Of a stretch of 64,000 nt of DNA, positions 32,035 through 57,810 are shown in pieces. A program made the position numbers and the translations under genes. The stretch is from Deltaproteobacteria bacterium. GTDB taxonomy: Bacteria > Desulfobacterota > WTBG01 > CAIYCZ01 > CAIRTM01. The stretch is from NCBI GenBank assembly GCA_024276465.1, contig JAJRXD010000013.1:47390-111389 (forward strand). The letters run 5' to 3'. Below the pieces are notes generated by a model that searched no databases, was not told the origin of the DNA, and worked only from the letters and a program-made list of their open reading frames with translations. Position 1 is the first letter of the stretch. The number at the start of each line of letters is the position of its first letter.

Positions 32035-32740
32035 GTTTTCCTCCCTGCTTTTTTTGTTTGTTGTTATAATCGGTCCTTTTAAATCAAACTTGATGGCTTC
32101 GCAGAAAGTTCAAGTCCCTGGCTGGCCTGGATCTGTGATTGGTGTTGTGCAGCATCCCTGGTCATTGCAACGTACAGCTTAGCCCACTTTATCCCTGAGG
32201 ATTTTTGTGCCTTGAATTTGAAGCTTTTTGTTCGGCCATTGAATTTTGACTTTTTACTGTTTTGTCAAGATGAAACTATTATAAAAAAACAGATTTGTAC
32301 TGCAAAAACCTGTTTTTAAAAAAATATTTTGATACCATATGAAGGAGTAAAGTTCAAGTAATATTTTCATTTAACACCTTGTATACATGCAGTATTTTTT
32401 TTAGAGGGGGGCCGACAGCCGATCTTAATAACAAAGGGTATCTATGAAGGGATATTTGAGGGTGTTACTAAGTTTTTAAAATTATATTAAGATCGACTGC
32501 CGTATATGAAAAAGCTAAAATTTAATCACTGTCATTTGCTGAAATATATATGCAGTATCTGTGCCATCTAAGCAAAAAAACACGACAAGACCTTAATCAT
32601 TTGAAATAACATTATTTTTTTGTATAATCCCATGAACTGCTCTCCTTTCCTTTTATCATTGAAAACAATAGAATTTGTCATTTTGGCAATTTAACGCTTT
32701 TACCAGGTACTGAAAGGACAATTTGTCAAAAAATATCATT

Positions 32741-34174
32741 CTATTCATCTTCCATCTTCCGGTATAAAGTCCTTTTAGAAACCCCTAATATTTTTGAAGC
32801 AATGTTTTTATTTCCTTTTGCCTGCTTCAATGTTTCCTCCATGACCATTTTCTCGATTTCTTTAAGAGGGACTTTCCCTACAGGAATATTAAGCACCCTT
32901 CCGGATGTTGTTATATCTTCAGAACCTTTAACTGCATTCAGAATATCCTCCGGCAGGTCTGTTGGTTTAATTACAGTTTCACGTGTCAGTACAACAGCCC
33001 GCTCTATTGTATTCTCCAGTTCCCTGACATTTCCGGGCCATCTGTATTTAGTCAGGAGATCCATGGTCTCTTTAGAAATACCTTCAATGTTTTTATCATT
33101 TTTACTGCTGTACATTCGAAGAAAAAAATCGGCAAGCAGCATAATGTCTTCCTTCCTTTCACGAAGAGGAGGGATTTCAATGTTTATTACATTTAGTCTG
33201 TAATAAAGGTCTTCCCGGAACTGTTTTGTCTCCACCAGTTTTTTCAGGGAGGCATTTGTAGCAGCAATAACCCTAACATCGGATTTAACAGTTTTACCAC
33301 CACCAAGCCTTTCAAACTCTCCGCTCTGGAGAACCCTTAAAAGCTTGACCTGAACAGCAGGGTTGATGTCCCCCACTTCATCAAGAAATAGAGTTCCTCT
33401 GTCAGCAAGTTCAAAACGGCCCTCTCTTCTGCTTACAGCACCGGTAAAAGCCCCTTTTTCATAGCCAAACAGTTCTGCCTCCAGAAGAGTCTCAGGAAGA
33501 GCAGCGCAATTTACCTTGATAAATTTATTTTCTCTCCGCTGGCTCATATTATGAATATCCACAGCCACTACTTCTTTTCCAACGCCGCTTTCTCCGGTAA
33601 TCAGTATGATAGCAGAGCTTGAGGCAACCTGACCTGCAAGGTCCATTACTTTTCTCATTGCCGGGCTCCTGCCTATAACATTTCCAGTCTTCTGGATATT
33701 TTTCAGCTTTTCATGCAAAATTTTGTTTTCAAGAACCAGAGACCGTTTTTCCAGAGCCTTTCTCACAGTTTTTAAAACAACTGCCTTGTTAAAAGGCTTT
33801 TGAATAAAGTCAAACGCCCCATCCTTCATAGCCTCCACTGCAACTTCAACTGTGCCATAGCCGGTGATCAGTATCACCTCAATATCAGGTGATATGGTTT
33901 TCGTTATACTTAAAAGTTCAGCGCCGTCAACCTTGGGCATCTTTAAATCTGTTAACACCAGGGCAATATCATTTTTTTGAAGTATTTTAACCGCTTGCTC
34001 ACCGTCACCTGCTGTAAAAACATTAAAGCCTTCTTTGTTGAGAATTTTTAAAATTGCATCCCTTATGCCGGGGGTGTCATCAACGACTAAAATTGCTTTG
34101 CCATCTGAAAAGTTCAATGTTTTCTCCTTAAACCCGGAATTTACAGTCCCGCTGAAATCGGGACTGTGAGGCAA
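32741..34174 (-). CDS. sigma-54-dependent response regulator (NtrC family)
   Basis: Receiver domain, AAA+ sigma-54 interaction domain (GESGVGKE, GAFTGA), C-terminal HTH. Confidence 0.9.
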   Translation of the reverse strand: MPHSPDFSGTVNSGFKEKTLNFSDGKAILVVDDTPGIRDAILKILNKEGFNVFTAGDGEQAVKILQKNDIALVLTDLKMPKVDGAELLSITKTISPDIEVILITGYGTVEVAVEAMKDGAFDFIQKPFNKAVVLKTVRKALEKRSLVLENKILHEKLKNIQKTGNVIGRSPAMRKVMDLAGQVASSSAIILITGESGVGKEVVAVDIHNMSQRRENKFIKVNCAALPETLLEAELFGYEKGAFTGAVSRREGRFELADRGTLFLDEVGDINPAVQVKLLRVLQSGEFERLGGGKTVKSDVRVIAATNASLKKLVETKQFREDLYYRLNVINIEIPPLRERKEDIMLLADFFLRMYSSKNDKNIEGISKETMDLLTKYRWPGNVRELENTIERAVVLTRETVIKPTDLPEDILNAVKGSEDITTSGRVLNIPVGKVPLKEIEKMVMEETLKQAKGNKNIASKILGVSKRTLYRKMEDE

Positions 34175-34209: not shown

Positions 34210-36264
34210 TTAAAATAAATCCTCGTTTTCTTTATGCATGGGAATTCTTATCTTGAAACATGTTCCATTCCCATGTCCATTGCTTTCATACTCTATTTCT
34301 CCTTTATGCTCAGTGACAACATGCTGTGTTATGGACAGTCCAAGTCCTGTCCCGCCACTCTTTGTTGTAAAAAAAGGGGCAAATATTTTTTCTGTCTGCC
34401 CTTCCGGGATTCCAGTGCCAGTATCTGTAAAAACAATTTCTATCCATCCATCAGTTGCACGTGTTGTAACTTCAATGAAGCCACCTGTTTCCATTGCCTC
34501 TACAGAGTTTCTGATAATATTGAGAAAAGCCCCACGAATCAGGTCCTGATCCACGTTTGTCAATGGCAGATTTTTTTCATAATTCGTCTTAAAGACAATT
34601 TTTTTTCTTCGCAGTTCTTCTTCAATAAAACCAAAAAGGTTTTTCAGGATTGTATTGATATTCTGTATCTCCGGTTTTATTTTCGGGAACCTGGTGCACT
34701 CCAGATATTCCTTTAAAATATTATGCAGGCCATCCAGCTCTGATTTGATTGTTGAAACAAGCTCTGTTGCCTCGGTGATATCGATTCCGGAATAGCTGTT
34801 GATTTCATCCTCCAAAAGGTCAATGTTTAAAGTAAGCGTTCCAAGGGGGTTCCGAATTTCATGGGCTACCTGAGCTGACATTTTAACTATCATTGATTTA
34901 CGCTCATGCTGAATAATCTCTGAGCGAAGAGCCATCTCTTTAGTTACATCTTTCACGCATTCTGCAACCCTGACCGTGTCCCCGTTTTTATCCTTCAAGG
35001 GGAAGGTGGCAAGATGGAAATAGTACTTTTTGCCCCCTAACACTGTGCTGACCTTTTCTCTGAATGCAGGTTTGCCGGTTAAGAAAGTTTCTTTTGCTGG
35101 ACAGCCTTCGCAAACACCTTCATGCTGCTGAAAAACAATGTAACACGGTTTGGCTTTAAAAAAATGCTGGGGTTTTCCCTGCCATTCACATACGGCTTTA
35201 TTCACCATAAGCACGCGGTAATTTCTGTCAATAATAGAGATTCCATCTGCCAAACCGTCAAAAACCTCCTGGCTCCAGGTGAGTTCCTGATTGACCAGTC
35301 TCTTTCTGTTTGTCTGGACTACTATCTGAAAGGCACTGACAATAATAAGAAGAATAAATAATGCTAAAAATATGGCAGGAACAGTGAGACTCTCAATTAG
35401 CGGGGCCATTACTTCATTGTAAGGAGCAGACACTCCAATTGACAGCAGCAGGCCTTTAAAATCTATGGGTGAATATGCAATAAGCTTTTTGGTCAGTTTT
35501 TTTTCTCCCAGATGCCAGCCGGTATATTCACCTTTGCCCTCCTCACCTTTGGTCATTTCTTTGTTTATAATTGCTTCAAGGTTCAGCGAGGAATATTTTG
35601 GCCAGAGTTCTTTCAGAACATCCATGGCCTTTCTTCCCTCCATGTCTTTGTTGGGATGGGCAAACAAAACCCCGTTGCAGTCTATCATCCAGGCATATCC
35701 TGTTCTGCCGGAACGTATTGGATAGATGAAATTATTTTTGATTTCACTGGAATTCAGGATACAGAAAAGCCACTGGGTCGTCTTTTTAACAGGCACGCCC
35801 ATAACAAATGAAAGGACAGGTTTATTTTCATGTTCAATGAAAATAAGATTGGTTAAAGATGCTTTGCCGGCACGGGCACTGGAAAGAATTTTATTAAAAT
35901 TGAGTTCAATTTCAGAAAGAGCACTAAACTCCTGGGGATAGCTGTATACTGCCTGCCCGCTGTTGCTGATTAGAAAAAGACTCTGAATGATATTTTGCTG
36001 ATTGGAAAAAAGTGACTTGAGTATTCTTTCTTTTGGATAAAAAGCAAGCAGGTCAGCACAAGTCTTAAGGCTTGTCTCTATGTTGTTTGCAAGTGCTTCA
36101 ATGCTCCTGGCAGATTCCCTGACAAGAAAGAGCTGTTGTGTGTTAAATGCTTCAGCAGTGTTCTTTGCGGTAATCCTGTAGCTTTCAAAGGCAATAACCA
36201 GAACACCTGCAATAAGAATTATTGCAGGAATCCAGATTTTTAATGCAGGTGAAATCCTTTCCAT
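34210..36264 (-). CDS. sensor histidine kinase (periplasmic Cache-like sensor, PAS, HisKA, HATPase_c)
   Basis: 684 aa. Two TM segments flanking a periplasmic domain. H-box VAHEIRNPL. G-boxes GTGLGL. Confidence 0.85.
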   Translation of the reverse strand: MERISPALKIWIPAIILIAGVLVIAFESYRITAKNTAEAFNTQQLFLVRESARSIEALANNIETSLKTCADLLAFYPKERILKSLFSNQQNIIQSLFLISNSGQAVYSYPQEFSALSEIELNFNKILSSARAGKASLTNLIFIEHENKPVLSFVMGVPVKKTTQWLFCILNSSEIKNNFIYPIRSGRTGYAWMIDCNGVLFAHPNKDMEGRKAMDVLKELWPKYSSLNLEAIINKEMTKGEEGKGEYTGWHLGEKKLTKKLIAYSPIDFKGLLLSIGVSAPYNEVMAPLIESLTVPAIFLALFILLIIVSAFQIVVQTNRKRLVNQELTWSQEVFDGLADGISIIDRNYRVLMVNKAVCEWQGKPQHFFKAKPCYIVFQQHEGVCEGCPAKETFLTGKPAFREKVSTVLGGKKYYFHLATFPLKDKNGDTVRVAECVKDVTKEMALRSEIIQHERKSMIVKMSAQVAHEIRNPLGTLTLNIDLLEDEINSYSGIDITEATELVSTIKSELDGLHNILKEYLECTRFPKIKPEIQNINTILKNLFGFIEEELRRKKIVFKTNYEKNLPLTNVDQDLIRGAFLNIIRNSVEAMETGGFIEVTTRATDGWIEIVFTDTGTGIPEGQTEKIFAPFFTTKSGGTGLGLSITQHVVTEHKGEIEYESNGHGNGTCFKIRIPMHKENEDLF

Positions 36265-36727
36265 TAACCTCTCAGCCTTTTTATGACCATTTTATAAACA
36301 GTTTTGGTGAATAATAATTAACATAGTAGTACGTTCTGTAATTTTTTATTGCATACGAACCTGTCAATGACACCCTGACATACCACTTTATTTATGAAAC
36401 GCTCTACTATTGTGTTTTTGCTTCTTAAAATTTGCAGAATACCTGCACAAATTTTTTATAAAAATATAAAGCTCTATCAACTTTAATATTATATCATACT
36501 ATCTCTCATGACAAACGCAAAAAACAAAAAAGAGATAATCTGTTAATAATTCACGAAAAGCAATATTTACCCATGCGCAGTATCCTGAAATTGATTTTTG
36601 AAAACCTGCAAAGCAGCGCACATCAGTGATATTCTGTACCATACAGGCAATAGTCAATCTGGATTATTAACACAAAATTAATTTCACCTTTATTAACTAT
36701 TAATACGATGCAGGTAGATTTATTTGT

Positions 36728-36888
36728 AAGTAGTGGGTGAACGAAAACCCTGATTAAGGTTGGAAACCGAAAAATAATTTTCTGTAGGAGCGCCTTCAGG
36801 CGCGATATCAGTTCTGTTTTTCGCGCCTGAAGGCGCTCCTACAGCATAAAATCAGGACTTTTCGGGCAGCCACTAAGTAGTGGGTGAA
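36728..36888. repeat. 161-bp palindromic element: 23-bp perfect inverted repeat flanked by 15-bp direct repeats
   Basis: IR ctgtaggagcgccttcaggcgcg (36782-36804) pairs with cgcgcctgaaggcgctcctacag (36822-36844). DR taagtagtgggtgaa at 36728-36742 and 36874-36888. Confidence 0.6.
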
Positions 36889-36987
36889 TAAAAATCCTTA
36901 CACAGAGTGAGGAATCAAGCATGTATCTTTTTTCAGGTTTTATCCTGATTTTTGTTGAGACTGTACAAAAGGAGTATCTGCGAACAT

Positions 36988-37332
36988 ATGAAGTATCAAA
37001 TAGTTGAGGATGATAGCTTTCTCCTCATAAAAATATCCGGCAAAACTGTTAAAAATGAAACTGTAATGGCAAAAAAAATGCTTTTTCCCCACCTCAAGAA
37101 AAAAGGTATTAAGGTTATTATAGACATGCGAAATTTAGAATCTTTTGAGCTGATAACCATCCTTGGGATTTTTAATGCTCTCAGGAAGGAAATTATGCTT
37201 GCAGGGGGTAGTATGAAGCTGTGTTGCTTAAAACCAAATATAATTAAGTTTTTAAAACAAAACAGGCTGGACCAGATGTTTCTTATATATAAGGACATGG
37301 AAACAGCAATAAAAAGTGCAGGGAGCAAGTAA
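36988..37332 (+). CDS. STAS domain protein (anti-sigma factor antagonist-like)
   Basis: SpoIIAA-like architecture. Probable start MKYQIVEDD (ORF-track start is 36952). Confidence 0.55.
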   Translation: MKYQIVEDDSFLLIKISGKTVKNETVMAKKMLFPHLKKKGIKVIIDMRNLESFELITILGIFNALRKEIMLAGGSMKLCCLKPNIIKFLKQNRLDQMFLIYKDMETAIKSAGSK

Positions 37333-40200: not shown

Positions 40201-40881
40201 ATGAATAAACTGATAGCAATAGTGGAAGATGAACCGGATATTGTAGAGCTTATTAAAATCCATCTTACAAAGGCTGGTTTTAATGTTAAAGGCTTTCCTG
40301 ACGGGCAAAGCTTTTTTAAGTTCTTAGGGAAAAATGACCCTGCCCTTGTAATTCTTGATCTCATGCTGCCTGATACAGACGGACTGGAAATATGCAAATT
40401 CATGAGAAACAAAGAGGAGTTTTCATCCACCCCCATTATAATGCTTACTGCTAAAAGTGAGGAGGTGGATAAAATATTAGGTCTTGAACTGGGCGCGGAT
40501 GATTATGTGACTAAACCCTTTTCCCCAAGGGAACTTGTTGCACGGGTTAAGGCTGTGCTGCGCAGAAAAAATGGAAAAAAAGAATCAGAGAAAATTCTGG
40601 TGGGAGATCTCCTGGTGATAGATTCAGGAAGATACGAGGTGAGCGTAAGGGAGAAAAAGGTGGAACTTACATCAACGGAATTTAAAATTTTAGAACTTCT
40701 CTGTTCAAGAAAAGGCTGGGTGTTTACAAGGGATAAAATTTTAAATTATCTGTGGGGGGAGGAAAAGGCTGTTATAGACAGAACTGTTGATGTCCACATA
40801 AAACATTTACGTGAAAAGCTTGGGGAAGCAGCCCGGTTGATTAAAAATATAAGGGGCGTAGGATATAAAATAGAGGAATGA
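40201..40881 (+). CDS. phoB: OmpR/PhoB-family response regulator
   Basis: 226 aa. Receiver domain plus winged-helix. Adjacent to a PhoR-like kinase and, across the island, to pstSCAB-phoU. Confidence 0.8.
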   Translation: MNKLIAIVEDEPDIVELIKIHLTKAGFNVKGFPDGQSFFKFLGKNDPALVILDLMLPDTDGLEICKFMRNKEEFSSTPIIMLTAKSEEVDKILGLELGADDYVTKPFSPRELVARVKAVLRRKNGKKESEKILVGDLLVIDSGRYEVSVREKKVELTSTEFKILELLCSRKGWVFTRDKILNYLWGEEKAVIDRTVDVHIKHLREKLGEAARLIKNIRGVGYKIEE

Positions 40882-42650: not shown

Positions 42651-43399
42651 ATTATGACTTTTTCCAGGCGTTGCTTACGCTTTTCCCAGTCCGGCAGAAT
42701 TCGTCCGAGAAGCTGGTAAAATTTCCTGTCATGTTGCGGACAGATCAGATGACACAGTTCATGTATAATCACATAATCAATACAGTGGATAGGTGCCTTG
42801 ACAAGTTCTGTGTTCAACATGATGTTGCCATTGCCAGAACAGCTGCCCCATCGTTTTTTTATACGGCGATAGCGCACTTGCGGTTCTGTTACGCCCATCC
42901 TCACAAAGGCTTGCAGGTAATAAGCAAGTCTTCTTGTAAGCAAATCCCTGGCATGTTCCGAATACCAATCAAGCATAAGTGCTTTGGCTTTTTCCCTTTT
43001 GTTTGGATCTGGTAACTGCATTTCAAAAAAACGACCGAGCAATCGTACTCGTGGTGTATCGCCACGTCGTGTTCTCAAACGATACTGCCGCCCCAAATAA
43101 TAATGAGTTTCACCGGAGACAAATTTTCGTTCCATAGGAAAGGACTGAAACTGCTCAAAAAAATCAAGTTGCCGGGCTATCCATGATGCCCGCTTTACAA
43201 GTCGCTGCTGAACAACTTCCAGCTCATATCCTGCAGGTGTTTTTGCCACGATTTTAAGGTCTGGGTACACTGTAATGGAAAGACGTTTGCGCTCGCTCCA
43301 CATAACATCCACAGCGAACTGTCGTCGTCCAAAACTTATTTTTATTTTTTCGCTTTTCACGCCAGTCACGGTTTCCTGATCCTGGCAATATCCAGACAC
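42647..43399 (-). CDS. DUF45/YgjP-like (WLM/M48-like) zinc metallohydrolase
   Basis: 250 aa. HELCHL HExxH motif. The family commonly trails hsdR in Type I RM loci. Confidence 0.75.
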   Translation of the reverse strand: MSGYCQDQETVTGVKSEKIKISFGRRQFAVDVMWSERKRLSITVYPDLKIVAKTPAGYELEVVQQRLVKRASWIARQLDFFEQFQSFPMERKFVSGETHYYLGRQYRLRTRRGDTPRVRLLGRFFEMQLPDPNKREKAKALMLDWYSEHARDLLTRRLAYYLQAFVRMGVTEPQVRYRRIKKRWGSCSGNGNIMLNTELVKAPIHCIDYVIIHELCHLICPQHDRKFYQLLGRILPDWEKRKQRLEKVII

Positions 43400-46300
43400 T
43401 GTTCCATTATCGCATCCATCTCCTCAAACGTAATTTCAATACCTTCTCTGTCTTTAAAGTCAAAAAGAAGGTCTTCGATATCATTCCTCATACGATTTTG
43501 TGTGTCCATATCACTATCCCAGCTAACAATACGGTTTCGTTCAATGACTTCATCTATAGCCAGCGCAACATCGGCAAGAACATCTTCGAAATCATCCCGG
43601 CCGTTATCCAATCGCCCGATGATTTCCTTAAGAGAACCAAAATAGGCCTTGGCAACATCATGGCTCTTGAGTTTTTCCGGAATTCGGTCTCCAGTACGGT
43701 TACGCACTGCGTTCATAATCTCCGTAACTTTCCTGAGATACTCATTTGCCTTAATCCGTTCTTCCCTGAAAGCCGCGATAGCAGCAATCAGGAGCTCTGA
43801 GAACCGTTTATAGAAAGCCGGGTCTTCCTGCATGCGCTCATGGATTGTTCGGGCTGTACGATGGGCAATTGTGTCGGCTTTGGCGGCCGCGTTCGGCAGT
43901 TTTTCCACTTCCCGGGCAAAGGCATCGGCATCAAAGATGTTAACCAGAGAGGTGATTTTTTCCACCTCACCGGTGCCGACATGCGTATCCAGCAGTTTTT
44001 GAATCTTAGGTTCGTATTCGCTAAAATCCACGACTTCTGCATATCGTTTCCTCACCGCCGTGCGCAGCTTGGAGAAAAACTTCAGGTCCGCCCGATAACG
44101 ACTCAACTTTTCCGGATCGGTTTCCTCTAAAAACTTTACGCTGGACAGTGCAATACCAAGCGTTTTTGAAAATGCCGATAAACGTTCATAAAACCTGGTC
44201 CGCAGCCCCACATCCGCCAGCGCCAGCTCGTAGGCTTCCTCATCCTGCTTGTTCTTGACCTCTTTAAATGTATCCCACAGGAGAGAATGCTTCTGAGGAA
44301 GTGTTGATGTCTCCACACTCACATCGGTGAGAATATTCTCAATATCTCCGGAATCAAACTCTGATAACGTGCTGTAAAGGTCCAGGGCGTGGTCGAGGTT
44401 TTCCAGGACCCCGCGATAATCGATGATATATCCGAAATCTTTGCTATTGCTCAGCCGGTTGACCCTGGCGATGGCTTGCAGCAGGGTATGGTCCTTCAGT
44501 TTCCGCATCAGGTAAAGAATGGTATTTCGGGGCGCGTCGAATCCAACGAGCAACTTATCTACCACAATAATTATTTCGGGATGTTCCGCGTTTTTGAAGG
44601 CATTGATAATCTGTTTGTTGTACTCCCGTTCGCTGCCGTATTTGCTGATGATCGTTTTCCAGAACCGATGCACGGCCAGTTTGTTTTCTTCATACAGGTC
44701 CTCTTCACCTTCCCGTTCGTCGGGACCCGAGATCAGCACTTCGCATGACACCATGGCGAATTCATCCAGATATTTTTTGTAGAGTAACGCGGCAGCCTTG
44801 TCCTGCGTCACCATTTGCCCCTTAAACCCTGTTCCTTGCCAGTTGTCACGAAAGTGCTCGCTGATATCCCAGGCAATGGCCATAACCTTCTGCGCCGCCT
44901 TGTTCAATTGGTCAGTGGTTGCGAATTTTTTTTTCAGGTCTGCAGATTGTTCATCGCTCAAGTTGGTTGTGATTCGCTCGAACCAGGCGTCGATACCATT
45001 GGAGTCTACGTGCTGTTCAACGTGTCTGCCCTCATATAAAAGGGGAACAACCGCCTTATCAGCCACCGCCCGGTCGATGGTATAGGTATCAATCAGGCCG
45101 CCGAATTTTTCGACCGTGTTTTTGTCCTTCTTCATCACCGGCGTCCCGGTGAAACCGATGTAACAGGCGTTCGGTAATACCCGACGCATTTTGGCATGGC
45201 GCGGGCCGTACTGGCCGCGATGGCCTTCATCTATCAGAACAAAAATATCGGGATCATCGTTGCGCACAACGTGCCGACCGACAGCCGCCTCAAATTTGTC
45301 GATGATCGTTGTTACAATGCGCTGTTTATTGCCTTTCAGCATCTGCGACAGGTGCTTGCCGGTTCCGGCCTGCTCAACTTCCTTGCCGCAATGGTGGAAG
45401 GTTCTGTATATCTGGTCATCAAGATCAACCCGGTCGGTCACCAGGACGATTTTGTAGTCGGTAATTTCAGGGCACAGGGCGATGGACTTGGCAAGCAGTA
45501 CCATGGTCAAGGACTTGCCGCTGCCCTGGGTGTGCCAGACCACGCCGCCCCGCCGTCTGCCGTTTTGTTCGCGATTCCCGATGCGGTCCATAATTTTTCT
45601 GACGGCAAAGTATTGCTGATACCGTGCGATCTTCTTGACACCGGCATCAAACAGAATAAAGCGATAGGTCAATTCAAGGAGCCGTTCAGGACGGCACAAT
45701 GCATAAAGTGCTCGATCCTGCTCAGTCACCTGTCTTTTAAGAGTGCCGTAAGCGGTCGGTTTTTCCCGTACCATCCACTCATTGTCAGTGAACAGCCTGT
45801 CCACCTGATTTTCAGTCAGGGGAATGTTTACCAATTCTTTCAAGGGCGGATGACCATCCGCCCCTACAGTTTCGATATTGTCTTCCCGCCATGCAGACCA
45901 GAATTTCAAAGGCGTTCCCGTAGTTGCGTATTTGGCCTCATTCTTTGACAACACCAAAAGGAGCTGAGAATAGATAAACAGATGAGGAATTTCGTCATGT
46001 TTCTGGTTGCGGATCTGCTGGGATATGGCCTGCGCAAGCGACTCCTTGATGTGCGGCGATTTACATTCGATCACGCAAAAGGGAATACCATTTACAAAGA
46101 GTACTATATCCGGTCTGCGGGTCTGGTGACTGCCGGCCCGCTCAACGGTAAATTCTTCCGTGACATGAAAGATGTTGTTGTCCGGATGTTCCCAGTCGAT
46201 ATAATGCAGGGTAAAACTCTTGATATCGCCGTCCACTGACTGCTGCAGGCTTTTGCCCAGGCACAACAGGTCATAAATTTTCTCATTGGTACGCACCAGT

Positions 46301-46563
46301 CCGTCAAAGGGAATCTCTTTGAGTGCCTGCAGGGCGCTCAGGATATTGCCCTCGGTAAACGGCAGCTCTCTTCCCTTGAATCTGACCCGGTTATTTTTCC
46401 GCAGCCAGTCAGCAAGAATTCCCTCCAGGAGTACGCCCCCCAGCCTGCCGCTCCGAAGGTCAAGAGCCTCTTTTGGTGTCAGATATTGCCATCCCAGATT
46501 CTGAAGCAGGTGCAGGGCAGGGAGCTGAGAAATGGCGTCTTCGTTTAAAACTGGCGCCCTCAT
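43366..46563 (-). CDS. hsdR: Type I restriction enzyme R subunit
   Basis: 1065 aa. HsdR N-terminal nuclease region and DEAD/DEAH helicase motifs (GSGKS, DEGHRGQ). Confidence 0.95.
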   Translation of the reverse strand: MRAPVLNEDAISQLPALHLLQNLGWQYLTPKEALDLRSGRLGGVLLEGILADWLRKNNRVRFKGRELPFTEGNILSALQALKEIPFDGLVRTNEKIYDLLCLGKSLQQSVDGDIKSFTLHYIDWEHPDNNIFHVTEEFTVERAGSHQTRRPDIVLFVNGIPFCVIECKSPHIKESLAQAISQQIRNQKHDEIPHLFIYSQLLLVLSKNEAKYATTGTPLKFWSAWREDNIETVGADGHPPLKELVNIPLTENQVDRLFTDNEWMVREKPTAYGTLKRQVTEQDRALYALCRPERLLELTYRFILFDAGVKKIARYQQYFAVRKIMDRIGNREQNGRRRGGVVWHTQGSGKSLTMVLLAKSIALCPEITDYKIVLVTDRVDLDDQIYRTFHHCGKEVEQAGTGKHLSQMLKGNKQRIVTTIIDKFEAAVGRHVVRNDDPDIFVLIDEGHRGQYGPRHAKMRRVLPNACYIGFTGTPVMKKDKNTVEKFGGLIDTYTIDRAVADKAVVPLLYEGRHVEQHVDSNGIDAWFERITTNLSDEQSADLKKKFATTDQLNKAAQKVMAIAWDISEHFRDNWQGTGFKGQMVTQDKAAALLYKKYLDEFAMVSCEVLISGPDEREGEEDLYEENKLAVHRFWKTIISKYGSEREYNKQIINAFKNAEHPEIIIVVDKLLVGFDAPRNTILYLMRKLKDHTLLQAIARVNRLSNSKDFGYIIDYRGVLENLDHALDLYSTLSEFDSGDIENILTDVSVETSTLPQKHSLLWDTFKEVKNKQDEEAYELALADVGLRTRFYERLSAFSKTLGIALSSVKFLEETDPEKLSRYRADLKFFSKLRTAVRKRYAEVVDFSEYEPKIQKLLDTHVGTGEVEKITSLVNIFDADAFAREVEKLPNAAAKADTIAHRTARTIHERMQEDPAFYKRFSELLIAAIAAFREERIKANEYLRKVTEIMNAVRNRTGDRIPEKLKSHDVAKAYFGSLKEIIGRLDNGRDDFEDVLADVALAIDEVIERNRIVSWDSDMDTQNRMRNDIEDLLFDFKDREGIEITFEEMDAIMEQCLDIARIRKP

Positions 46564-48095
46564 CGGTTTTTCTCCTGTTCAAGTAGTTGCTGTCCCTTTA
46601 TCGTCAGCCGATATTTCTGCTTGCTGCTTGTTGGCTTGTCAGGAATGGTCATTTCAATAAACGCAGCCTCGATAAGATGATTCAATACTTGCTGCCTGAA
46701 CTTGGTGCGATCTTTTCGTCCTGTAATGGACATAAGCTCAAGCAATGTACTTTCCCCCTTGCATTTATTGAGTATTTCAACTTGGTGCCGACTTAGTGCC
46801 GACTTAGTGCCAACTTGTGTATCCTGCAGCCATTTCAGAGATTCAGCAAAAACAGGATGGATAAATAATTCTACCAGAAAATAAGTCCTTTCGTCATCCG
46901 TATGGAATATAGGCGCAGGAGAACCATTGTCCCTAATCGCCCTTAACATTTTTGGAATGCCGGTTCCTCGCCCCTCGGTCATTTCAAGCTCCTTGAGGAA
47001 CTCCCCGACCCGGCGGTTACGGTATCGACGGGACAGAAAACGGAATTCTTGCATGTCTTTTTTCCGGATGGATCGGTCAGGCCCAGGAAAGCTGGAAATG
47101 GTTATACGATCCGGCAAAATGCGCACCTCCATAGGCTCCCTGATTTCATAAGAACGGTGATACACAGCGTTACAGAGGGCTTCTTCAATGGCGGCAAACG
47201 GATAGTTGAAAAAACGGTCGGCTTCTGCACGGTCAGGGTGCTTGATGATCTTTTCCTCTATCACCGTCGAGCGGATATGAGCAAGTGCATCCTGCAACAT
47301 AACGTGGAGCGGCCCAGTGAAAATCTTTTCAGTGAAAAAGTCCGCCCCGGGACCTTCAGGAAAATGCACTACATCAATCTGTGTTTGAGGGAAAAATTTG
47401 GAGGGATTGTTGTTAAAGAACATGAGGCCGACATTCCTGGGCCACACTGCTTCGTCAGGCCCGTCAGCAATGTTTATCCGGCGGCAAAGCTGGACAAAAT
47501 TCATTTTTGCCGCTTCGGGAAAAAGATCGCTTTTGACCTGCTTCAGATAGGCACGCATCAGTCCCAGATCCAAATCGTCAAAAATGGCAGCCTGGTTCAT
47601 GCGGTCGTCAAAGGGAACAGTGGCAGCAAGGCTCATTAATTCCACTTCATCCTGATGCCTGGCTCGAACAGTAACTGACCCCTTACGAATATAGTAGGCA
47701 AATTCCCTCTTGCCCTTTGCCAGAGAAACCGGGGCTTTGTAGGGCCTGGTCTGACCTCCTATGGCCCAGAGCACCAGGATGTGTTTTTCGCCAATTTTAC
47801 ATGGAGCTATAATCGGGTGATAATAAGGCACCATCCGGTAGCCAAACTCCACGATTTCTTTCTGGATGGCGTCAAGTTCCCCGGCTGGCATCCCTTGTGG
47901 CGGCAAAACAGGCCGGCCATTATCTTCTTCCACTCCGATGATGATGTATCCACCGCCAAGGTTATGAAAATCATTGGCAAAAGCACACATGGTGTGCAGC
48001 ACCTTTTCCGGGTTCCAGCCGGCCTTGAACTCCAGCCGTTCCCATTCCACGGTCCGGGCGGTGAGAAGGTCGTTTATGTTAATTGGGAGGTTCAT
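46560..48095 (-). CDS. AlbA_2 (Schlafen-like DNA-binding) and HATPase_c_4 domain ATP-binding protein
   Basis: N-terminal AlbA_2-type domain (EFKAGWNPEKVLHTMCAFANDFHNLGGGYIIIGV). Probable start MNLPININ at 48095; the ORF track starts at a GTG at 48131. Confidence 0.65.
   Translation of the reverse strand: MNLPININDLLTARTVEWERLEFKAGWNPEKVLHTMCAFANDFHNLGGGYIIIGVEEDNGRPVLPPQGMPAGELDAIQKEIVEFGYRMVPYYHPIIAPCKIGEKHILVLWAIGGQTRPYKAPVSLAKGKREFAYYIRKGSVTVRARHQDEVELMSLAATVPFDDRMNQAAIFDDLDLGLMRAYLKQVKSDLFPEAAKMNFVQLCRRINIADGPDEAVWPRNVGLMFFNNNPSKFFPQTQIDVVHFPEGPGADFFTEKIFTGPLHVMLQDALAHIRSTVIEEKIIKHPDRAEADRFFNYPFAAIEEALCNAVYHRSYEIREPMEVRILPDRITISSFPGPDRSIRKKDMQEFRFLSRRYRNRRVGEFLKELEMTEGRGTGIPKMLRAIRDNGSPAPIFHTDDERTYFLVELFIHPVFAESLKWLQDTQVGTKSALSRHQVEILNKCKGESTLLELMSITGRKDRTKFRQQVLNHLIEAAFIEMTIPDKPTSSKQKYRLTIKGQQLLEQEKNR
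46785..46817. repeat. 11-bp tandem repeat, 3 copies, inside the AlbA_2 gene
   Basis: gtgccgactta gtgccgactta gtgccaacttg. Confidence 0.6.
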
Positions 48096-48105
48096 ATTTT
48101 CACCT

Positions 48106-48897
48106 TTAATTTCCGGTTTCAGGGCAGACACGCAGGTCTGCCCCTACAACGGCAGGGTTTTCCCGGTCGTGTTCCCATTTGGCCGGATTATCAATGATGT
48201 ATTGGCGAAGGCGGTTTAATTCGTTTTCATTGCGGACAATATGTTCCCAATAATTGCGTTGCCATAATTTGCCGTCAAATCGTGGCCAACCGCATTGTTT
48301 GACACCACGGATATATTCATTGGTTGTTATGGTTTTAAACCATTGAACCACCGCCCGTAGGGGCGCACCTGTGTGTGCGCCCGTTGTTTCGTGTGCGTCC
48401 GGTTCGGGTTCGCCTGGTTCCATGTGTTCGTCCGTTTTGTGGTTGTCCGAATCGTGGTTGTCCCCTATGTGTTCCCGCGGTTTTGTAGGGGCAATCCTGC
48501 GTGATTGCCCATTGTTCCGTGATCGCACATCACTAGGGCAGACACGCAGGTCTGTTTCAGGGCAGACACGCAGGTCTGCCCCTACATTGACAACAACACC
48601 GTGAAAATGATTCGGCATAACAATATATTCATCACATCGAATATCCGGGAATTTGTTTTCTAATTCCTGATACCATTTCTTCACCATCCGTCCCGGATCA
48701 TTCAATACCATTTCACCATCCACAATTTTACCAAACATACATTCCCGATTCTGTGTGCATATTGTCACAAAATATGCCCCTGATTGCGAATAATCATATC
48801 CCCGCAAACGGATAGACCGACGGTTTCGTTCCCGCCGTAGGGGCAACCCCCTGTGGTTGCCCACATCCAATTCTGTATCCGAATCCCGTTTAATCAT
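48106..48897 (-). CDS. REP-associated tyrosine transposase (RAYT, IS200/IS605 TnpA-like HUH enzyme) with REP palindromes inside the ORF
   Basis: HUH motif MPNHFHGVV and Tyr motif LWQRNYWEHIVRNE...YIIDNPAKW. The spacing between the two motifs is about 57 aa longer than canonical because of a REP-containing in-frame insert. Confidence 0.8.
   Translation of the reverse strand: MIKRDSDTELDVGNHRGLPLRRERNRRSIRLRGYDYSQSGAYFVTICTQNRECMFGKIVDGEMVLNDPGRMVKKWYQELENKFPDIRCDEYIVMPNHFHGVVVNVGADLRVCPETDLRVCPSDVRSRNNGQSRRIAPTKPREHIGDNHDSDNHKTDEHMEPGEPEPDAHETTGAHTGAPLRAVVQWFKTITTNEYIRGVKQCGWPRFDGKLWQRNYWEHIVRNENELNRLRQYIIDNPAKWEHDRENPAVVGADLRVCPETGN
48122..48147 (-). repeat. REP element (GTAG-headed palindrome) overlapping the RAYT stop
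   Basis: Minus strand reads gtaggggcagacctgcgtgtctgccc. Confidence 0.75.
48357..48382 (+). repeat. REP element variant inside the RAYT ORF
   Basis: gtaggggcgcacctgtgtgtgcgccc. Confidence 0.7.
48485..48510 (+). repeat. REP element variant inside the RAYT ORF
   Basis: gtaggggcaatcctgcgtgattgccc. Confidence 0.7.
48536..48585 (-). repeat. tandem REP pair: a truncated copy at 48536-48554 and a full copy at 48560-48585
   Basis: gggcagacacgcaggtctg tttca gggcagacacgcaggtctgcccctac. Confidence 0.75.
48837..48862 (+). repeat. REP element variant in the 5' part of the RAYT ORF
   Basis: gtaggggcaaccccctgtggttgccc. Confidence 0.7.
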
Positions 48898-49946
48898 ATT
48901 TCTACCCTGATTTCCCCTGTCAGCAGTTTCTGCATCAGGCCCTTCTTTTGTTCCAATAATTTCTCCTGTTTCTTTTTCAATAATTCAATTTCCCGGTCGC
49001 AGGTGGAAAGAGTCCCTGCTATACGTTTTTGTTCGTCTGTGGTAGGCAAGTGAACCGTGGTCTTCATCACAGCGGATGTTGTTAGACCAAACCGCGTGGC
49101 TCCATTAGCATGTGTCGTGAAATGCTTTCGTGACCGTGCGCTACCCAATTCCTTTGACAGAAAAACGGGGTTGACTTCTACGGAGTTCGGGCGGATGAGT
49201 GCGAGGTGATAACCGCATACAACATTCTCTAATTTCTCTGTGACAACTGCCGGAATGCCTATATCATCGGGTGTCTCTGAATCTTTCGTAATCATGACGT
49301 CACCCTGTCGCAGTAAGAACCTTTCAATCTCGGAAGCCGAAGCCGTTGCTGGCATGAAGTTCAGGTCAACGGTGATATAGTCATTCGCATAGACATCCAT
49401 GTAGTTGCAGAGCCTGACGGGTATTTCATCGGTATGAGTCTTCTTGTCCACGCCGCTGAAGGAAACGTGAGCGATGCTGCCAATGGGCCTCTCTTCCCAC
49501 CCCTCCGGCAGTTCGCCTCTTTTCTCAACCGGTTTGCCAAACTCAGGGAACCGCATCCGGCCGGAGAGCAGTTGCTGCATCAGCCCTTTTTTGAGTAATT
49601 CAGCGAAATCTCGATCTACGAGAGCAGGAACAGCAATGTCATCGGCTGTTTCGGAATCCTTTGTAATGAGGACGTCACCCTTTTGCAGAGAATAGCGTTC
49701 AATCTCTCGTGGCATTGCCGTAGCGGACATGAATGAGATGGCGTCTGAAATATGGGCGTTGTAGTAAACGTCCGTATAATTGCACAGGCGTACTGCCTGC
49801 TCTCCCTTATGTGATTTTTTGTCGACGTTGCTGAAACGTACATCAGCGACATCCTCAAGCCGCACACATTCCCATTCCTCCGGTATCCACCCAACTTTGG
49901 AATCCTTATATCCGAGCCTGTTTTCGTTCCGCTTGCTCATGCGCAT
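48894..49946 (-). CDS. hsdS: Type I restriction-modification specificity subunit with two similar target-recognition domains
   Basis: 350 aa. Duplicated TRD blocks (VRLCNYTDVY...ITKDSETADDIAVPALV and VRLCNYMDVY...ITKDSETPDDIGIPAVV). Conserved coiled-coil spacer regions. Confidence 0.85.
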   Translation of the reverse strand: MRMSKRNENRLGYKDSKVGWIPEEWECVRLEDVADVRFSNVDKKSHKGEQAVRLCNYTDVYYNAHISDAISFMSATAMPREIERYSLQKGDVLITKDSETADDIAVPALVDRDFAELLKKGLMQQLLSGRMRFPEFGKPVEKRGELPEGWEERPIGSIAHVSFSGVDKKTHTDEIPVRLCNYMDVYANDYITVDLNFMPATASASEIERFLLRQGDVMITKDSETPDDIGIPAVVTEKLENVVCGYHLALIRPNSVEVNPVFLSKELGSARSRKHFTTHANGATRFGLTTSAVMKTTVHLPTTDEQKRIAGTLSTCDREIELLKKKQEKLLEQKKGLMQKLLTGEIRVEI

Positions 49947-50698
49947 TTCTCCCGCTTGGCCTGTTCGCGTGCCATCTCATCGAGTTCTTTCTTCAGAGCT
50001 TTTGGGAGAAGGCTCCAGTCAAAATCTTTCATCTCGCTCTCTTTCAGGCTGTAAAGAACATTGGTGGCATCCCTGATGAATCGTTCTTTGGACTGCTGTT
50101 TCAATAAATCAAGCATGGATGCTCCGTGACATCTCCGCAGTATCTTCCCGGAACCGCAGGGACAAACGTGATGCCCCCGATATGTCCCATCGGCCATCAG
50201 TTTTAATAATGACAGCACGATCTGAACATCATCGGTGTTAAACAGGTCTTGATAGTATTCCCGGATACCATTTGCCCCATGAGAGAGTTCACCGAAAGGC
50301 ATTTCGCCATGTTTCTCAAAGTATGCATATCCATACAGGTACTCGACAACCAGCGTTTCCACAAAGGTGACAAGGCGGGGATCGGCCTTGAATCGCCTCC
50401 ATACTTCAACCGGGGCTCCAAGGCACAGAGTCCGATCACCATACTGATGGAAATTTGGTGGGATTCGACCGCCGGTCTCCTGAACCGTGGGTGGAGAATC
50501 CGGGTAGTCACGGGGCAGCATGATCAGAATAGAGAATACGTCCGTGATTGTCACTTTTTGAAACGTCGCAGAGAACGACAGCATCCCCCGAATCACCCAC
50601 CGGCAGGGGGCGTCTTCGTATAGTTTCAGCCCGGAGGAATATTTCCCTGACAATTCCTCGAACTGCTGCCGGATCAGTGCTTCTTTGCCGTTATTCAA
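49937..50698 (-). CDS. E2/UBC-like protein with C-terminal SEC-C-like zinc motif (CBASS Cap2-like, E2-only)
   Basis: HPN-like loop and catalytic Cys (IPPNFHQYGDRTLCLGAP). C-terminal HVCPCGSGKILRRCHG. 4-nt overlap with the nucleotidyltransferase gene. Confidence 0.55.
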   Translation of the reverse strand: MNNGKEALIRQQFEELSGKYSSGLKLYEDAPCRWVIRGMLSFSATFQKVTITDVFSILIMLPRDYPDSPPTVQETGGRIPPNFHQYGDRTLCLGAPVEVWRRFKADPRLVTFVETLVVEYLYGYAYFEKHGEMPFGELSHGANGIREYYQDLFNTDDVQIVLSLLKLMADGTYRGHHVCPCGSGKILRRCHGASMLDLLKQQSKERFIRDATNVLYSLKESEMKDFDWSLLPKALKKELDEMAREQAKREKCA

Positions 50699-51858
50699 GA
50701 TTCACGCCCCCACGGCTTGCTGGGCTTGGTAATACTGATACTTGGGGCTACGGCTGCAACGGCACTTACAGAGCTTGAACGAGTTGGAAAGGCCCTTGAA
50801 TCTGCCTCATTGACAATGCGGTCGCCAAACCGAGGTTTGAGGTTCTCGATCATGTCATCGAGGTCCCCAGCGCGAAGGGCGGCATCCAGATCGACACGAA
50901 CCTGTTGTATCCACTCGCGGAACTTGACTTCCAACTCTGGGTGTTTCCTCCATTTGTCGGCAAAGTTCTCGGGATGATCGGTCACATCAACCGGGTTTGC
51001 AACGAGGGCGTTACCCTGTTCATCCCGTCCAATCAGACCGGGCATCTTGTTGACGATATTCTGCAGCGCATCAAGAAGATCGGCTTCGTTGTTGTATGCA
51101 TGACCGGCAAGTGTCGTAATGATGATTGAAATAGGCCGATTACCCAAGTCGTCTTTAAACATGATGTCCCTGTGCCGCTTGAGAATCTGGATGGATCGTT
51201 GCAGCGGGGTTTTGACCTTGTATTCCGGGACATCCTCAATGCTTGCTCGAAGCGATTCGGCCAGCAACATGCGTTTGGCATCAAACTGCACGCGCGTGCG
51301 CTCCTTGAACCACTCGGCATAGCCGACGGGATTACTCCGTTGCCAATTGTATAGTTCCCGGTCGGTTATAAGAATTGCGCTTTGGGCAAGGTTCGCACCG
51401 ATCTCACGGGCTATTCCGTTGATATCGTCATCGGGAATTGCCGGCAGAATGTCCATGTGGAAACGGGCTGAGTCGGCATATTGCAGTGTCCAGCAGCGTT
51501 TGCCCTCTTTGAGCATCTTGCGATACCGTTCATTTTCCTTCAGGCGGTCCCCGACCATATCCTTAAGTTGCTTCTGGGTGACGTTTTCTTTTCTTAGAGC
51601 CTTCAATTCACAAACGAGGTCGATGTCATATTCGTCCTTATCGTTTACAGGTTTGATCATCGTGCCCAGACGAAATGAACCTTGTGGATAGATTTGGGGA
51701 TCATACTCAGCTATGGGCGAATCATCCTTATTCAGCCAGTCACCAACCGCCTCGTAATGCTTTACAGCCGCTTCGTACTGTGCATCGGAGATATCCAGTG
51801 ATTCCGCCAATTCCTGAAACAACTGCCTGAGTTCATTATGTCGTTCCTGTGTCATCAC
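50695..51858 (-). CDS. cGAS/DncV-like nucleotidyltransferase (CD-NTase)
   Basis: 387 aa. Pol-beta NTase signature QGSFRLGTMIKPVNDKDEYDIDLV (GS...DxD) and a downstream acidic residue (FHMDILP). Flanked by a patatin effector and an E2-like gene. Confidence 0.7.
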   Translation of the reverse strand: MMTQERHNELRQLFQELAESLDISDAQYEAAVKHYEAVGDWLNKDDSPIAEYDPQIYPQGSFRLGTMIKPVNDKDEYDIDLVCELKALRKENVTQKQLKDMVGDRLKENERYRKMLKEGKRCWTLQYADSARFHMDILPAIPDDDINGIAREIGANLAQSAILITDRELYNWQRSNPVGYAEWFKERTRVQFDAKRMLLAESLRASIEDVPEYKVKTPLQRSIQILKRHRDIMFKDDLGNRPISIIITTLAGHAYNNEADLLDALQNIVNKMPGLIGRDEQGNALVANPVDVTDHPENFADKWRKHPELEVKFREWIQQVRVDLDAALRAGDLDDMIENLKPRFGDRIVNEADSRAFPTRSSSVSAVAAVAPSISITKPSKPWGRES

Positions 51859-52823
51859 ATACCTCCGTTGTTGAGGTCCAAAAAAGTCTTGATCATTTCC
51901 GCCTTATGCGAGAAATCCCTATCAGCACGAGACTTCAAATCGCGCAGGTCAGCCGGATCGTCCAAAGGAAGCGCAGAGTCTGAGTCAAAATTGAGTCTTA
52001 AAATCTGCTCTGGTCTCAGGAGAAGACCTGTCATGTTGTTGGCTGTTTCAGATTGAAGATTTAGCAGCATTGAAATGAACTTTCCATGCTGCCAGCGTGT
52101 TGCAAATCCCCAGCCCTGATATCGCTTCCACCATGGCCGCTTCTGTGGATAAAAGCTACGGCTAACTCCTGTGCCGAGGGTAAACACCTTAAGGGAGTCA
52201 AGGTCCTTGCCAAGCCGCTTTTTGGCGTCAATTACTGCAACAAGTGAAGGACTGTTTGCCCACAACCCCCCATCGGCCAGAAGGTACTCACCTACATTTT
52301 GAGGATCGAAATAGGTGGGGGCTGAGCAGGATGCCATAACGGCATCTCGGATAAGAACGTTGCGGTCACGGACAAACCCTTTATCATAGCCCGACTTGAA
52401 CACATGAACACATCCGTTCCCGATGTCAGTTGCCGGAATAATGAGTGGCGTTGTTACTTGCCCAAGTCGGCGGTCAGCAAAAACCTCCTGCAGAATGTCA
52501 CGAAGGTATTGGTTTCTGTATCGACTCCTAATAAAACCAAAGCGTGGCATAAACCGGCGAGGAAATATCTGAGCACCGTGTTCTTCGTAGAATTCCACGA
52601 TGTCACACGCGCGCATTTCGCACGCAAGTCCTGCCGCAACTATTGAACCGGTACTCGTACCTGCAATCAATTGAAAATGATTTCGCAAATCCAAGTCGTA
52701 TTCTTGCTCAATCCGGGCAAGAATATGGGCGGCATAGACGCCACGAAATCCACCACCGTCAACGGAAAGAATACGGAAGGAGTTGTCTGCAGAACTTGAC
52801 AGAACAGGGTTCGATTTGCTCAT
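51855..52823 (-). CDS. capV: patatin-like phospholipase (CapV-like CBASS effector)
   Basis: 322 aa. Oxyanion hole DGGGFRG, nucleophile elbow GTSTG, catalytic dyad Asp in ADGG. Confidence 0.85.
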   Translation of the reverse strand: MSKSNPVLSSSADNSFRILSVDGGGFRGVYAAHILARIEQEYDLDLRNHFQLIAGTSTGSIVAAGLACEMRACDIVEFYEEHGAQIFPRRFMPRFGFIRSRYRNQYLRDILQEVFADRRLGQVTTPLIIPATDIGNGCVHVFKSGYDKGFVRDRNVLIRDAVMASCSAPTYFDPQNVGEYLLADGGLWANSPSLVAVIDAKKRLGKDLDSLKVFTLGTGVSRSFYPQKRPWWKRYQGWGFATRWQHGKFISMLLNLQSETANNMTGLLLRPEQILRLNFDSDSALPLDDPADLRDLKSRADRDFSHKAEMIKTFLDLNNGGM

Positions 52824-56335: not shown

Positions 56336-56508
56336 TGTCCAAAACAAGGTATTAACATATTGTTTTTGCATGTGTTTCAAGGTTGAGATTGCTTCGGTCG
56401 TACTTCCCTCGCAATGACATTAACTGTTTGATTTTGCTTTGCATTGTCATTGCGAGCGAAGCGTGGCAATCTCGTTCTTGGACAACAATGAAAAAGATTC
56501 TATAATGT
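56321..56508. repeat. 170-bp palindromic insertion at the pstS/pstC junction bounded by 18-bp direct repeats
   Basis: DR aaaaagattctataatgt at 56321-56338 and 56491-56508. Internal composite IR 56385-56473 (gagattgc...ctcgcaatgaca / tgtcattgcgag...gcaatctc). Confidence 0.65.
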
Positions 56509-57461: not shown

Positions 57462-57810
57462 TGGCAACACCTGAACAGAGTGATTTTACCTGTGAGAGTT
57501 TTCCCCACAACAGGTTTTCACTCATTCTCGGCAGACATCCATGTCTGCCTGTGAGGTAAGCATTACGTTTCACCATCCAGGTGAAAATAGTGTAATGCTT
57601 AAACCCGTTCAAACCTGCTGTGGGGAAAGTTCTTTGCAAAACCATATCCTTAAGAACCGGCTTTATTGTGTGTCGAAATCAACTGTTCAGGTGGATAGAC
57701 TGAAGATTGAAGACTGTTGGATTACTTCAGCCTTTAACCTGAACACCTGGGTAGTTACCATTGAATCACAGAAACAAAACTACTCAAACATTGTGTGACA
57801 GGGCAGTAGC

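Follow-up and report, generated by a model that had tools for sequence, protein, structure and literature searches.

A probable GTAG-1-class REPIN in the predicted leader of a STAS-MBL operon from a low-GC Desulfobacterales-like genome

The element considered here is a perfect inverted repeat, together with the direct repeats around it, in a 64,000-nucleotide stretch of a Deltaproteobacteria bacterium assembly (GCA_024276465.1, contig JAJRXD010000013.1, positions 47,390 to 111,389), hereafter called the window and numbered from its first letter. The closest described systems are the repetitive extragenic palindromic sequences (REPs) tagged with the tetranucleotide GTAG, and the hairpin-forming REP doublets known as REPINs. 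The REPs that flank REP-associated tyrosine transposase (RAYT) genes read GTAGGAGCGCGCTCGCGCGCGA in Xanthomonas campestris and TGTAGGAGCGGATTCATCCGCGAT in Pseudomonas entomophila (Nunvar et al. 2010, PMC2817692). Two features define the GTAG-1/2 repeats, a dinucleotide that separates GTAG from the stem and a conserved 3-bp motif that follows the stem; their dimers with GTAG outside are termed 'HH', homodimers can fold as one large hairpin, and REP dimers have been discussed as RNA hairpins and as targets of endoribonucleases (Di Nocera et al. 2013, PMC3733652). In Marinomonas, the REP holds a 5-bp perfect palindrome 2 nt from GTAG, the RAYT cuts at CT or CA beside the hairpin with GTAG acting as the guide, and the single-strand transposition of the IS200/IS605 type makes no target duplication (Corneloup et al. 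2021, PMC8266576).

Architecture of the inverted repeat

The inverted repeat is made of two arms of 24 nt each (36782-36805 and 36821-36844), which are 100% complementary and separated by 15 nt. The repeat reported by a first-pass annotation of the sequence, with arms of 23 nt and a loop of 17 nt, is a subset of this one. On both arms the perfect repeat begins precisely at CT-GTAG; the GTAG tag, which sits at 36784-36787 and, on the minus strand, at 36842-36839, is followed by an unpaired GA, by the stem-loop and then by a GAT or GAA 3-nt motif, an order that is the hallmark of the GTAG-1/2 repeats. The CT-GTAG start on both arms and the architecture shared with the published REPs, together with the multi-genome family, its dimer geometry and its RAYT neighbours described below, lead us to conclude that the core (36782-36844) is very probably a REPIN, i.e. 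an HH homodimer of the published GTAG-1-class REP (GTAGGAGCG...CGCGA). The core is extragenic, being located within 36265-36987, and its GC content is about 57% in a surrounding region of about 37%. Folded as single-stranded DNA, the 63-mer reaches -32.6 kcal/mol, compared with -7.8 +/- 1.9 kcal/mol for shuffled sequences (z = -13), and the mini-palindrome GCGCC-TTCA-GGCGC that had already been recognised in each arm does form a hairpin, at -6 kcal/mol, when the arm is folded alone.

The core shares with the GTAG-1 REPs of Pseudomonas and Xanthomonas (PMC2817692, PMC3733652) the frame (T)GTAGGAGCG...CGCGA(T/A), the GTAG tag, the unpaired dinucleotide, a short GC stem-loop, the conserved 3-nt tail, the ability to build hairpin-forming dimers and the association of its class with RAYT genes. 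It differs from them by its stem-loop, GCGCC-TTCA-GGCGC, and by its setting: a Desulfobacterales-like host of about 42% GC, with one doublet and no cognate RAYT within 64 kb. The group 3 REPtron Mb of Marinomonas sp. MWYL1 (PMC8266576) also displays a 5-bp perfect palindrome 2 nt from GTAG and a 4-nt loop (TTTA there, TTCA here), but the sequence of its stem is different; its cleavage occurs at CT/CA beside the hairpin, and the core has CT directly before GTAG on both arms, as a candidate cleavage site. The REPINs of P. fluorescens SBW25 (Bertels & Rainey 2011, PMC3116915) are similarly composed of two inverted REPs with a short spacer that fold into a hairpin, with one dimer orientation in strong excess and with single-copy RAYT genes flanked by the same REPs, whereas the spacers of the family to which the core belongs range from 3 to 119 nt and vary widely in sequence between genomes. 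Finally, the REPs and bacterial interspersed mosaic elements (BIMEs) of E. coli, associated with TnpA_REP, are GTAG-tagged palindromes too, and their alternating orientation resembles the + - + order of three motifs, A, B and C, which surround the core (Table 1). The E. coli REPs have longer, bulged stems, whereas A, B and C are devoid of convincing hairpins and are not multi-copy.

The stability and GC content of this hairpin, and the fact that REPs are reported to terminate or stabilise transcripts (PMC3733652), would suit an intrinsic and possibly bidirectional terminator, or a transcriptional insulator between divergent units. However, the flanking genes diverge, so that there is no transcript in need of termination; the stem is followed by no T-run on the plus strand and only by a displaced TTATTTTT on the minus strand, and the sigma-70 and terminator scan did not flag the element. 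We consider this role extremely improbable.

REP copies and RAYT genes in other genomes

The 20-mer GTAGGAGCGCCTTCAGGCGC, which lies within the arm, was scanned exactly against one genome per species and is present in at least 119 stretches of other genomes. Among the matches listed, nearly all carriers are Gammaproteobacteria of 60-73% GC (Arenimonas, Luteimonas, Dokdonella, Guyparkeria and metagenome-assembled genomes, MAGs, of Chromatiaceae), and a few are MAGs of 49-56% GC named Desulfomonilia, 'delta proteobacterium' or Thermodesulfobacteriota. The similarity between the window and the listed carriers is confined to 57-63 nt of the core; beyond the REP unit the flanking sequence is unconserved across the copies of the family, of which the other carriers hold up to 6 per 8-kb locus. 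In the 171 copies of the matches listed, the exact adjacent pairs comprise 34 in the order '+ then -' and none in the order '- then +'. When up to 5 mismatches are allowed, an inverted partner is found within 160 nt downstream of 117 of the 158 copies (74%) and upstream of 11 (7%), again among the matches listed, and the REP family therefore occurs overwhelmingly as dimers with their GTAG ends outward, as in the window. In 168 of 172 listed copies the dinucleotide after the stem is GA, and the commonest one before GTAG is CT (54 of the same 172). The partner variants GCGGC/GCCGC and GGGCC/GGCCC keep the pairing of the stem through compensatory changes.

Heterodimers that combine a GCGCC arm with a GCGGC arm are found in the delta and Desulfomonilia MAGs (L076 at 5136, L077 at 3298 and L082 at 809), and the spacer GTTGTGTGCACCCCT... 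is conserved among these MAGs, unlike the variable spacers of the gammaproteobacterial copies. Three REP-carrying contigs have a composition or a label inconsistent with their bin: L092, from a MAG labelled Bacteroidales (66.6% GC), L100, labelled Klebsiella pneumoniae, and L022, a contig of 50.5% GC from an Arenimonas MAG. These contigs are probably mis-binned, and the taxonomic spread of the REP family as deduced from MAG labels is therefore uncertain.

In Guyparkeria and in Arenimonas, REPs of the core class lie beside RAYT genes, which is the classical REP-RAYT arrangement. The open reading frame (ORF) 1022-1471(-) of Guyparkeria halopsychrophila (L037) contains the motifs HLH and YIVANPVRAGLV, scores 130 bits on the NCBIfam model NF047646 'REP-associated tyrosine transposase' (cutoff 80) and also matches Pfam Y1_Tnp; its product aligns with E. 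coli TnpA_REP (PDB 4er8, E = 5e-7) through the HUH and Tyr motifs, and the gene is flanked on both sides by core-class REPs and by their GCGGC variant. A second RAYT, from Arenimonas composti, extends across the junction of L062 and L048, scores 110.8 bits on NF047646 and has REP clusters on both sides.

The window has a RAYT homologue of its own, ORF 48106-48897(-), which reaches 57 bits on NF047646 in two stretches, below the cutoff of 80; the HUH and Tyr motifs of its product can be aligned with those of 4er8 and stand about 80 aa further apart than in that protein, and between them, inside the ORF, lie REPs of another class, GTAGGGGC-8bp stem-6nt loop-GCCC (Table 1). This transposase gene may have been interrupted by its own REPIN. 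The window contains 10 GTAG-tagged hairpins, compared with 2.9 in composition-preserving shuffles, and 6 of the 10 belong to the GTAGGGGC-stem-GCCC class (one at 45867 and five at 48122-48862). The presence of these hairpins and of the RAYT homologue indicates that the source genome hosts REP-RAYT biology. As a cognate of the core REP, ORF 48106-48897 was rejected: tblastn leads only there, and its REPs are of a different class.

Several further observations concern these hairpins. The GTAGGGGC-class copies in 48122-48862 vary by compensatory changes in their stems. The hairpin GTAGGGGCGGATGGTCATCCGCCC at 45842-45867(-), with a 9-bp stem and a 2-nt loop, lies inside a 1065-aa ORF (43366-46563) and may be an intragenic REP of the same class. 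A perfect 28-nt GTAG-tagged palindrome, GTAGAGACGCAAAATTTTGCGTCTCTAC, at 5839-5866, is placed at the junction of the convergent ORFs 5108-5842(+) and 5897-7909(-), where it overlaps the last 4 nt of the first; it is either a third REP class or a bidirectional terminator. The neighbours of the RAYT homologue itself are a Schlafen/AlbA_2-type gene on one side and a type I restriction-modification specificity gene on the other. With the rest of the type I restriction-modification genes, the three belong to a block (44000-54000) whose GC content is about 50%, compared with about 41% elsewhere, and which is possibly an acquired defence island.

As non-autonomous elements, REPINs are processed in the form of single-stranded DNA by a RAYT (TnpA_REP), a HUH/Y1 transposase. 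The enzyme recognises the small REP hairpin and its GTAG tag and cuts at the CT (or CA) beside the hairpin. In the mechanism that we propose for the origin of the window copy, this copy would have arrived by RAYT-mediated transposition. The cognate RAYT would either be encoded elsewhere in the source genome or have been lost since.

Several facts weigh against the identification of the core as a REPIN. A REP population is defined by the abundance of its copies in one genome, usually above 100, and there is one doublet in 64 kb: no further match to the arms was found in the window at up to 3 mismatches (100 shuffles gave none either), and the additional copies of the inverted and direct repeats that the first-pass annotation proposed to look for are absent from it. 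The sole RAYT homologue of the window, with its 57 bits for a cutoff of 80, is both flanked and interrupted by the other REP class (GTAGGGGC-N14-GCCC), and nearly all of the listed carriers of the core REP are high-GC genomes (60-73%), while the window is at about 42%. REPs are usually situated between convergent or co-directional genes (PMC3733652), and the core stands in a divergent promoter region. No transposition event, in the form of an empty site, has been observed, and REPIN biology leaves the A/B/C motif and the exact 15-nt direct repeat unexplained. Two further searches were negative: the scan of metagenome contigs for the spacer of this REPIN, TATCAGTTCTGTTTT, gave 0 matches, and BLAST against plasmids and phages returned nothing at E <= 0.01, a result of little meaning for so short a query.

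The flanking motif and the predicted leader of the STAS-MBL operon

The core lies in a divergent intergenic region of 723 bp (36265-36987). A dCache/PAS histidine kinase gene on the minus strand stands to its left, followed by the gene of a sigma-54 activator with a HTH_8 domain, and to its right are a STAS gene on the plus strand, with its ATG at 36988, and a gene coding for an MBL-fold hydrolase. The location between the kinase and STAS/MBL genes had been correctly described, with a length of 690 bp that has to be replaced by the one given above. The sigma-70 scan places promoter-like sites for the kinase at 36451-36514 on the minus strand. The source names attached to the best matches of the MBL protein suggest Desulfobacterales or Thermodesulfobacteriota; its closest relatives are 76-80% identical in amino acids, and their intergenic regions are not alignable to that of the window.

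In five distinct relatives, whose MBL proteins show 76-78% identity, the neighbours of the STAS-MBL operon include pstS-like, pstCAB-like, phoU, porin O/P, phnG and PhoBR-like genes, and STAS is preceded in each by an array of three KTAAY units with an 11-nt period. L120 has this array before its porin O/P (Porin_O_P) and PstS-like genes as well. The window has an array of this type followed, after 4 nt, by a -10-like hexamer (Table 1), and the 4-nt spacing is the same in relatives (TATCTT in L122, TATTAA in L120). The KTAAY array is probably the Pho box of this Desulfobacterales lineage, and the STAS-MBL pair is probably a member of the Pho regulon, its operon being regulated by phosphate. 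On these promoter-like features, transcription would start at about 36727-36730, in coincidence with the start of motif A, and the composite formed by the REPIN and the three motifs would occupy approximately nucleotides +1 to +172 of the leader of STAS-MBL. In four relatives, 62, 63, 77 and 138 nt separate the array from the start codon of STAS, and in a fifth, where an ORF intervenes, the interval is 379 nt; the window has 283 nt. The upstream regions of the five related operons contain neither the A/B/C motif with its direct repeat nor the inverted repeat of the REPIN, which makes the composite an addition to the predicted mRNA leader that is specific to this lineage.

Table 1. Positions of the REPIN, of the surrounding motifs, of the Pho-box-like arrays and of the second REP class; coordinates are those of the window unless a relative (L number) is named
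Feature	Position	Strand	Remarks
Left REP unit	36782-36805	+	CT (candidate cleavage dinucleotide)-GTAG-GA-[GCGCC-TTCA-GGCGC]-GA; 5-bp stem, 4-nt loop
Spacer of the REP dimer	36806-36820		TATCAGTTCTGTTTT; length inside the family range of 3-119 nt
Right REP unit	36821-36844	-	identical to the left unit, inverted; GTAG ends outward, 'HH' homodimer
Motif copy A	36727-36755	+	first 15 nt identical to C; last 14 nt nearly complementary to B; left side of the outer stem
Motif copy B	36850-36876	-	inverted copy, about 77% to A; right side of the outer stem
Motif copy C	36874-36898	+	25 nt, 88% identical to A; abuts B head-to-head (CCACTAA/GTAGTGG)
Pho-box-like array	36667-36710	+	four 11-nt-periodic KTAAY units (TTAAC/TTAAT/TTTAT/TTAAT); 3 matches vs 0.34 expected
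-10-like hexamer	36716-36721	+	TAGATT; 4 nt after the last array unit
Other KTAAY array, window	32464-32490	-	
Other KTAAY arrays, L120	5569-5595, 6728-6765, 8530-8567		
Other KTAAY array, L122	2127-2153		
Other KTAAY array, L124	3042-3068		
Other KTAAY array, L129	1030-1056		
Other KTAAY array, L131	2476-2513		
GTAGGGGC-class REP at the RAYT homologue	48122-48147	-	8-bp stem, 6-nt loop
GTAGGGGC-class REP at the RAYT homologue	48357-48382	+	8-bp stem, 6-nt loop
GTAGGGGC-class REP at the RAYT homologue	48485-48510	+	8-bp stem, 6-nt loop
GTAGGGGC-class REP at the RAYT homologue	48560-48585	-	8-bp stem, 6-nt loop
GTAGGGGC-class REP at the RAYT homologue	48837-48862	+	8-bp stem, 6-nt loop

Exact copies of the 15-nt direct repeat TAAGTAGTGGGTGAA occupy 36727-36741 and 36874-36888 (shuffle mean of 0.06 matches); the second copy is where it had been placed, the first lies 1 nt to the left of its announced position (36728-36742). 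The similarity reaches 25 nt, with 88% identity, and the repeat represents two of the three copies (+,-,+) of a motif of about 25-30 nt. Motif B (36850-36876) pairs with 36731-36755 of A to form an outer stem around the REPIN, which folds, with the REPIN deleted, at -36.3 kcal/mol, compared with -19.5 +/- 3.4 kcal/mol for the shuffles (z = -5.0). A has the look of a mosaic, its last 14 nt matching the complement of B at 13/15 and C at only about 8/14. An nhmmer profile of the motif found no further copy in the window, the next best match having E = 0.6; a metagenome scan for AGTAGTGGGTGAANNAAAANCC of the direct-repeat motif gave 4 matches, all in unrelated chance contexts, and the viral contigs gave 0. 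The 9-mer TAGTGGSTG occurs 8 times in the window for 0.6 expected, its 5 extra sites being inside genes and having no extended similarity. The idea that A, B and C are decayed GTAG REPs was rejected, as their potential stems have only 2-4 bp and the GTAG-hairpin scan did not retain them. In the family as a whole, flanking repeats of at least 11 nt accompany only 3 of 54 dimers, all three in REP clusters. Such repeats are not a property of the family, and those at this locus therefore do not represent a target duplication of the RAYT mechanism, in agreement with the single-strand transposition of the IS200/IS605 type, which produces none.

We regard the three flanking copies as a by-product of a local rearrangement around the palindrome, separate from the mobile unit. 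They may have originated from a local rearrangement or palindrome extension, from a composite 147-bp insertion with a 15-bp duplication, or from a native B-C palindrome of the leader that was partly duplicated. In the second of these scenarios, the whole 147-bp unit would be a composite miniature transposon (A-REPIN-B, bounded by the 15-nt direct repeats) that produced a 15-bp target-site duplication in the leader and carried the REPIN as cargo. The geometry, which runs from direct repeat to imperfect inverted repeat, core, inverted repeat and direct repeat, would agree with such an insertion, as would the outer stem, significant by itself, and a leader about 145-220 nt longer than in four of the five relatives; removal of the 147 bp leaves 136 nt, similar to the 138 nt of L131. 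But the left outer arm overlaps the first direct repeat and does not lie inside it, so that the arrangement is one of three motif copies and not one of terminal inverted repeats with a target-site duplication; the imperfect similarity runs 10 nt past the exact 15-nt repeat, which a target-site duplication does not predict; and neither a second copy of the motif or the outer arms in the window nor anything beyond the chance contexts cited above in the metagenome and viral contigs was found. Scans of the window and of the metagenome gave no other copy of the unit bounded by the direct repeats. We hold such a composite transposon to be unlikely. Of the first-pass proposal of a miniature inverted-repeat transposable element (MITE), the part that survives is a mobile miniature element, in the form of a REPIN from a RAYT-flanking family. 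A classical MITE, with terminal inverted repeats and a target-site duplication, was rejected: the bases adjacent to the arms (AATTTT and CATAAA) are not repeats, and the direct repeats are 40 and 29 nt away.

The repeats could also be thought of as operator sites for the NtrC-type activator (32741-34174) or another regulator, such as the OmpR-type one at 40201-40881, whether in the GC-rich inverted repeat or in A, B and C, including the B-C palindrome CAGCCACTA-AG-TAGTGGGTG. The divergent regulatory region beside a sigma-54 activator with a HTH_8 domain would be an appropriate place for them; B and C form a 9-2-9 imperfect palindrome, and A and C are 147 bp apart, that is to say 14 helical turns. 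However, an inverted repeat of whose family unrelated genomes hold hundreds of copies cannot serve as an operator specific to one locus, 36265-36987 contains no match to the sigma-54 -24/-12 element (TGGCAC-N5-TTGCW) at up to 3 mismatches, the Pho-box-like array is retained before the five related STAS-MBL operons without A/B/C or the inverted repeat, and the other TAGTGGSTG 9-mers of the window are coding sequence. The regulator-site array put forward by the first-pass annotation, with the adjacent NtrC-type regulator as a candidate, is very unlikely on these grounds.

A third alternative places the function in RNA: the element would have been exapted as a cis-acting leader RNA, or as a small RNA made from the Pho-box promoter, and its stability, its processing or the choice between A:B and B:C pairing would regulate STAS-MBL. 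The predicted transcription start falls right at motif A, the 186-nt RNA of the composite has a computed fold of -87.3 kcal/mol (z = -11.5), B is able to pair with A or with C, and REP dimers are discussed as RNA hairpins and endoribonuclease targets in PMC3733652. On the other side, that start comes from promoter-like motifs and the structure signal is that of any REPIN; the element is not conserved in the relatives, and no hairpin is followed by a U-run, which leaves no attenuator logic. The Rfam 15 scan of 36200-37100 (E up to 10) gave only chance hairpin look-alikes below threshold, the top score being 28.5 bits (a viral CRE model, threshold 55 bits) for gathering scores of 43-75 bits in the matched families, and no tRNA or tmRNA was detected in the window. 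The structured small RNA suggested earlier thus receives no backing from Rfam, although the element may plausibly be transcribed within an mRNA leader. An exapted regulatory RNA seems to us improbable.

Whatever the status of such a regulatory role, a REPIN located in the leader would be transcribed as a very stable hairpin that could affect the stability of the mRNA or be a target of RNase III; if transcribed, it would contain a perfect RNA duplex of 24 bp, on which RNase III could plausibly act or which could stabilise the 5' end. A scenario that combines several of these elements can be formulated, in which a REPIN of the high-GC gammaproteobacterial type would have entered a low-GC Desulfobacterales lineage, either within a new type of 147-bp hairpin element that makes a 15-bp duplication or by capture through palindrome extension; the resulting 172-bp composite, no mere passenger, would now act on a Pho-regulated mRNA at the RNA level, as an RNase III site or 5' stabiliser within its first ~170 nt. 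We consider it quite unlikely.

Three other inverted repeats were noted in the window: a 17-nt pair of 94% identity at 56403-56461 (CTTCCCTCGCAATGACA / TGTCATTGCGAGCGAAG), a 23-nt pair of 87% with a 93-nt spacer at 57495-57633, and a 27-nt pair of 78% at 16950-17032.

Significance for REP-RAYT systems

In conclusion, the REPIN core is ordinary and its class has already been published; what is new is its occurrence in a low-GC Desulfobacterales-like genome. Its very probable identification allows a striking perfect palindrome in a regulatory region to be annotated as a REPIN, and neither as a site for the neighbouring regulator nor as a new RNA. The locus-private triple motif around it may record a rearrangement driven by the palindrome. 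The predicted leader of an operon that is probably regulated by phosphate is an unusual place for a REP, and the presence of a REPIN there could alter the fate of the mRNA. More generally, the existence of an identical REP unit of 22-24 nt in very distant lineages and in very different GC backgrounds bears on the question of a purely vertical inheritance of REP-RAYT systems.

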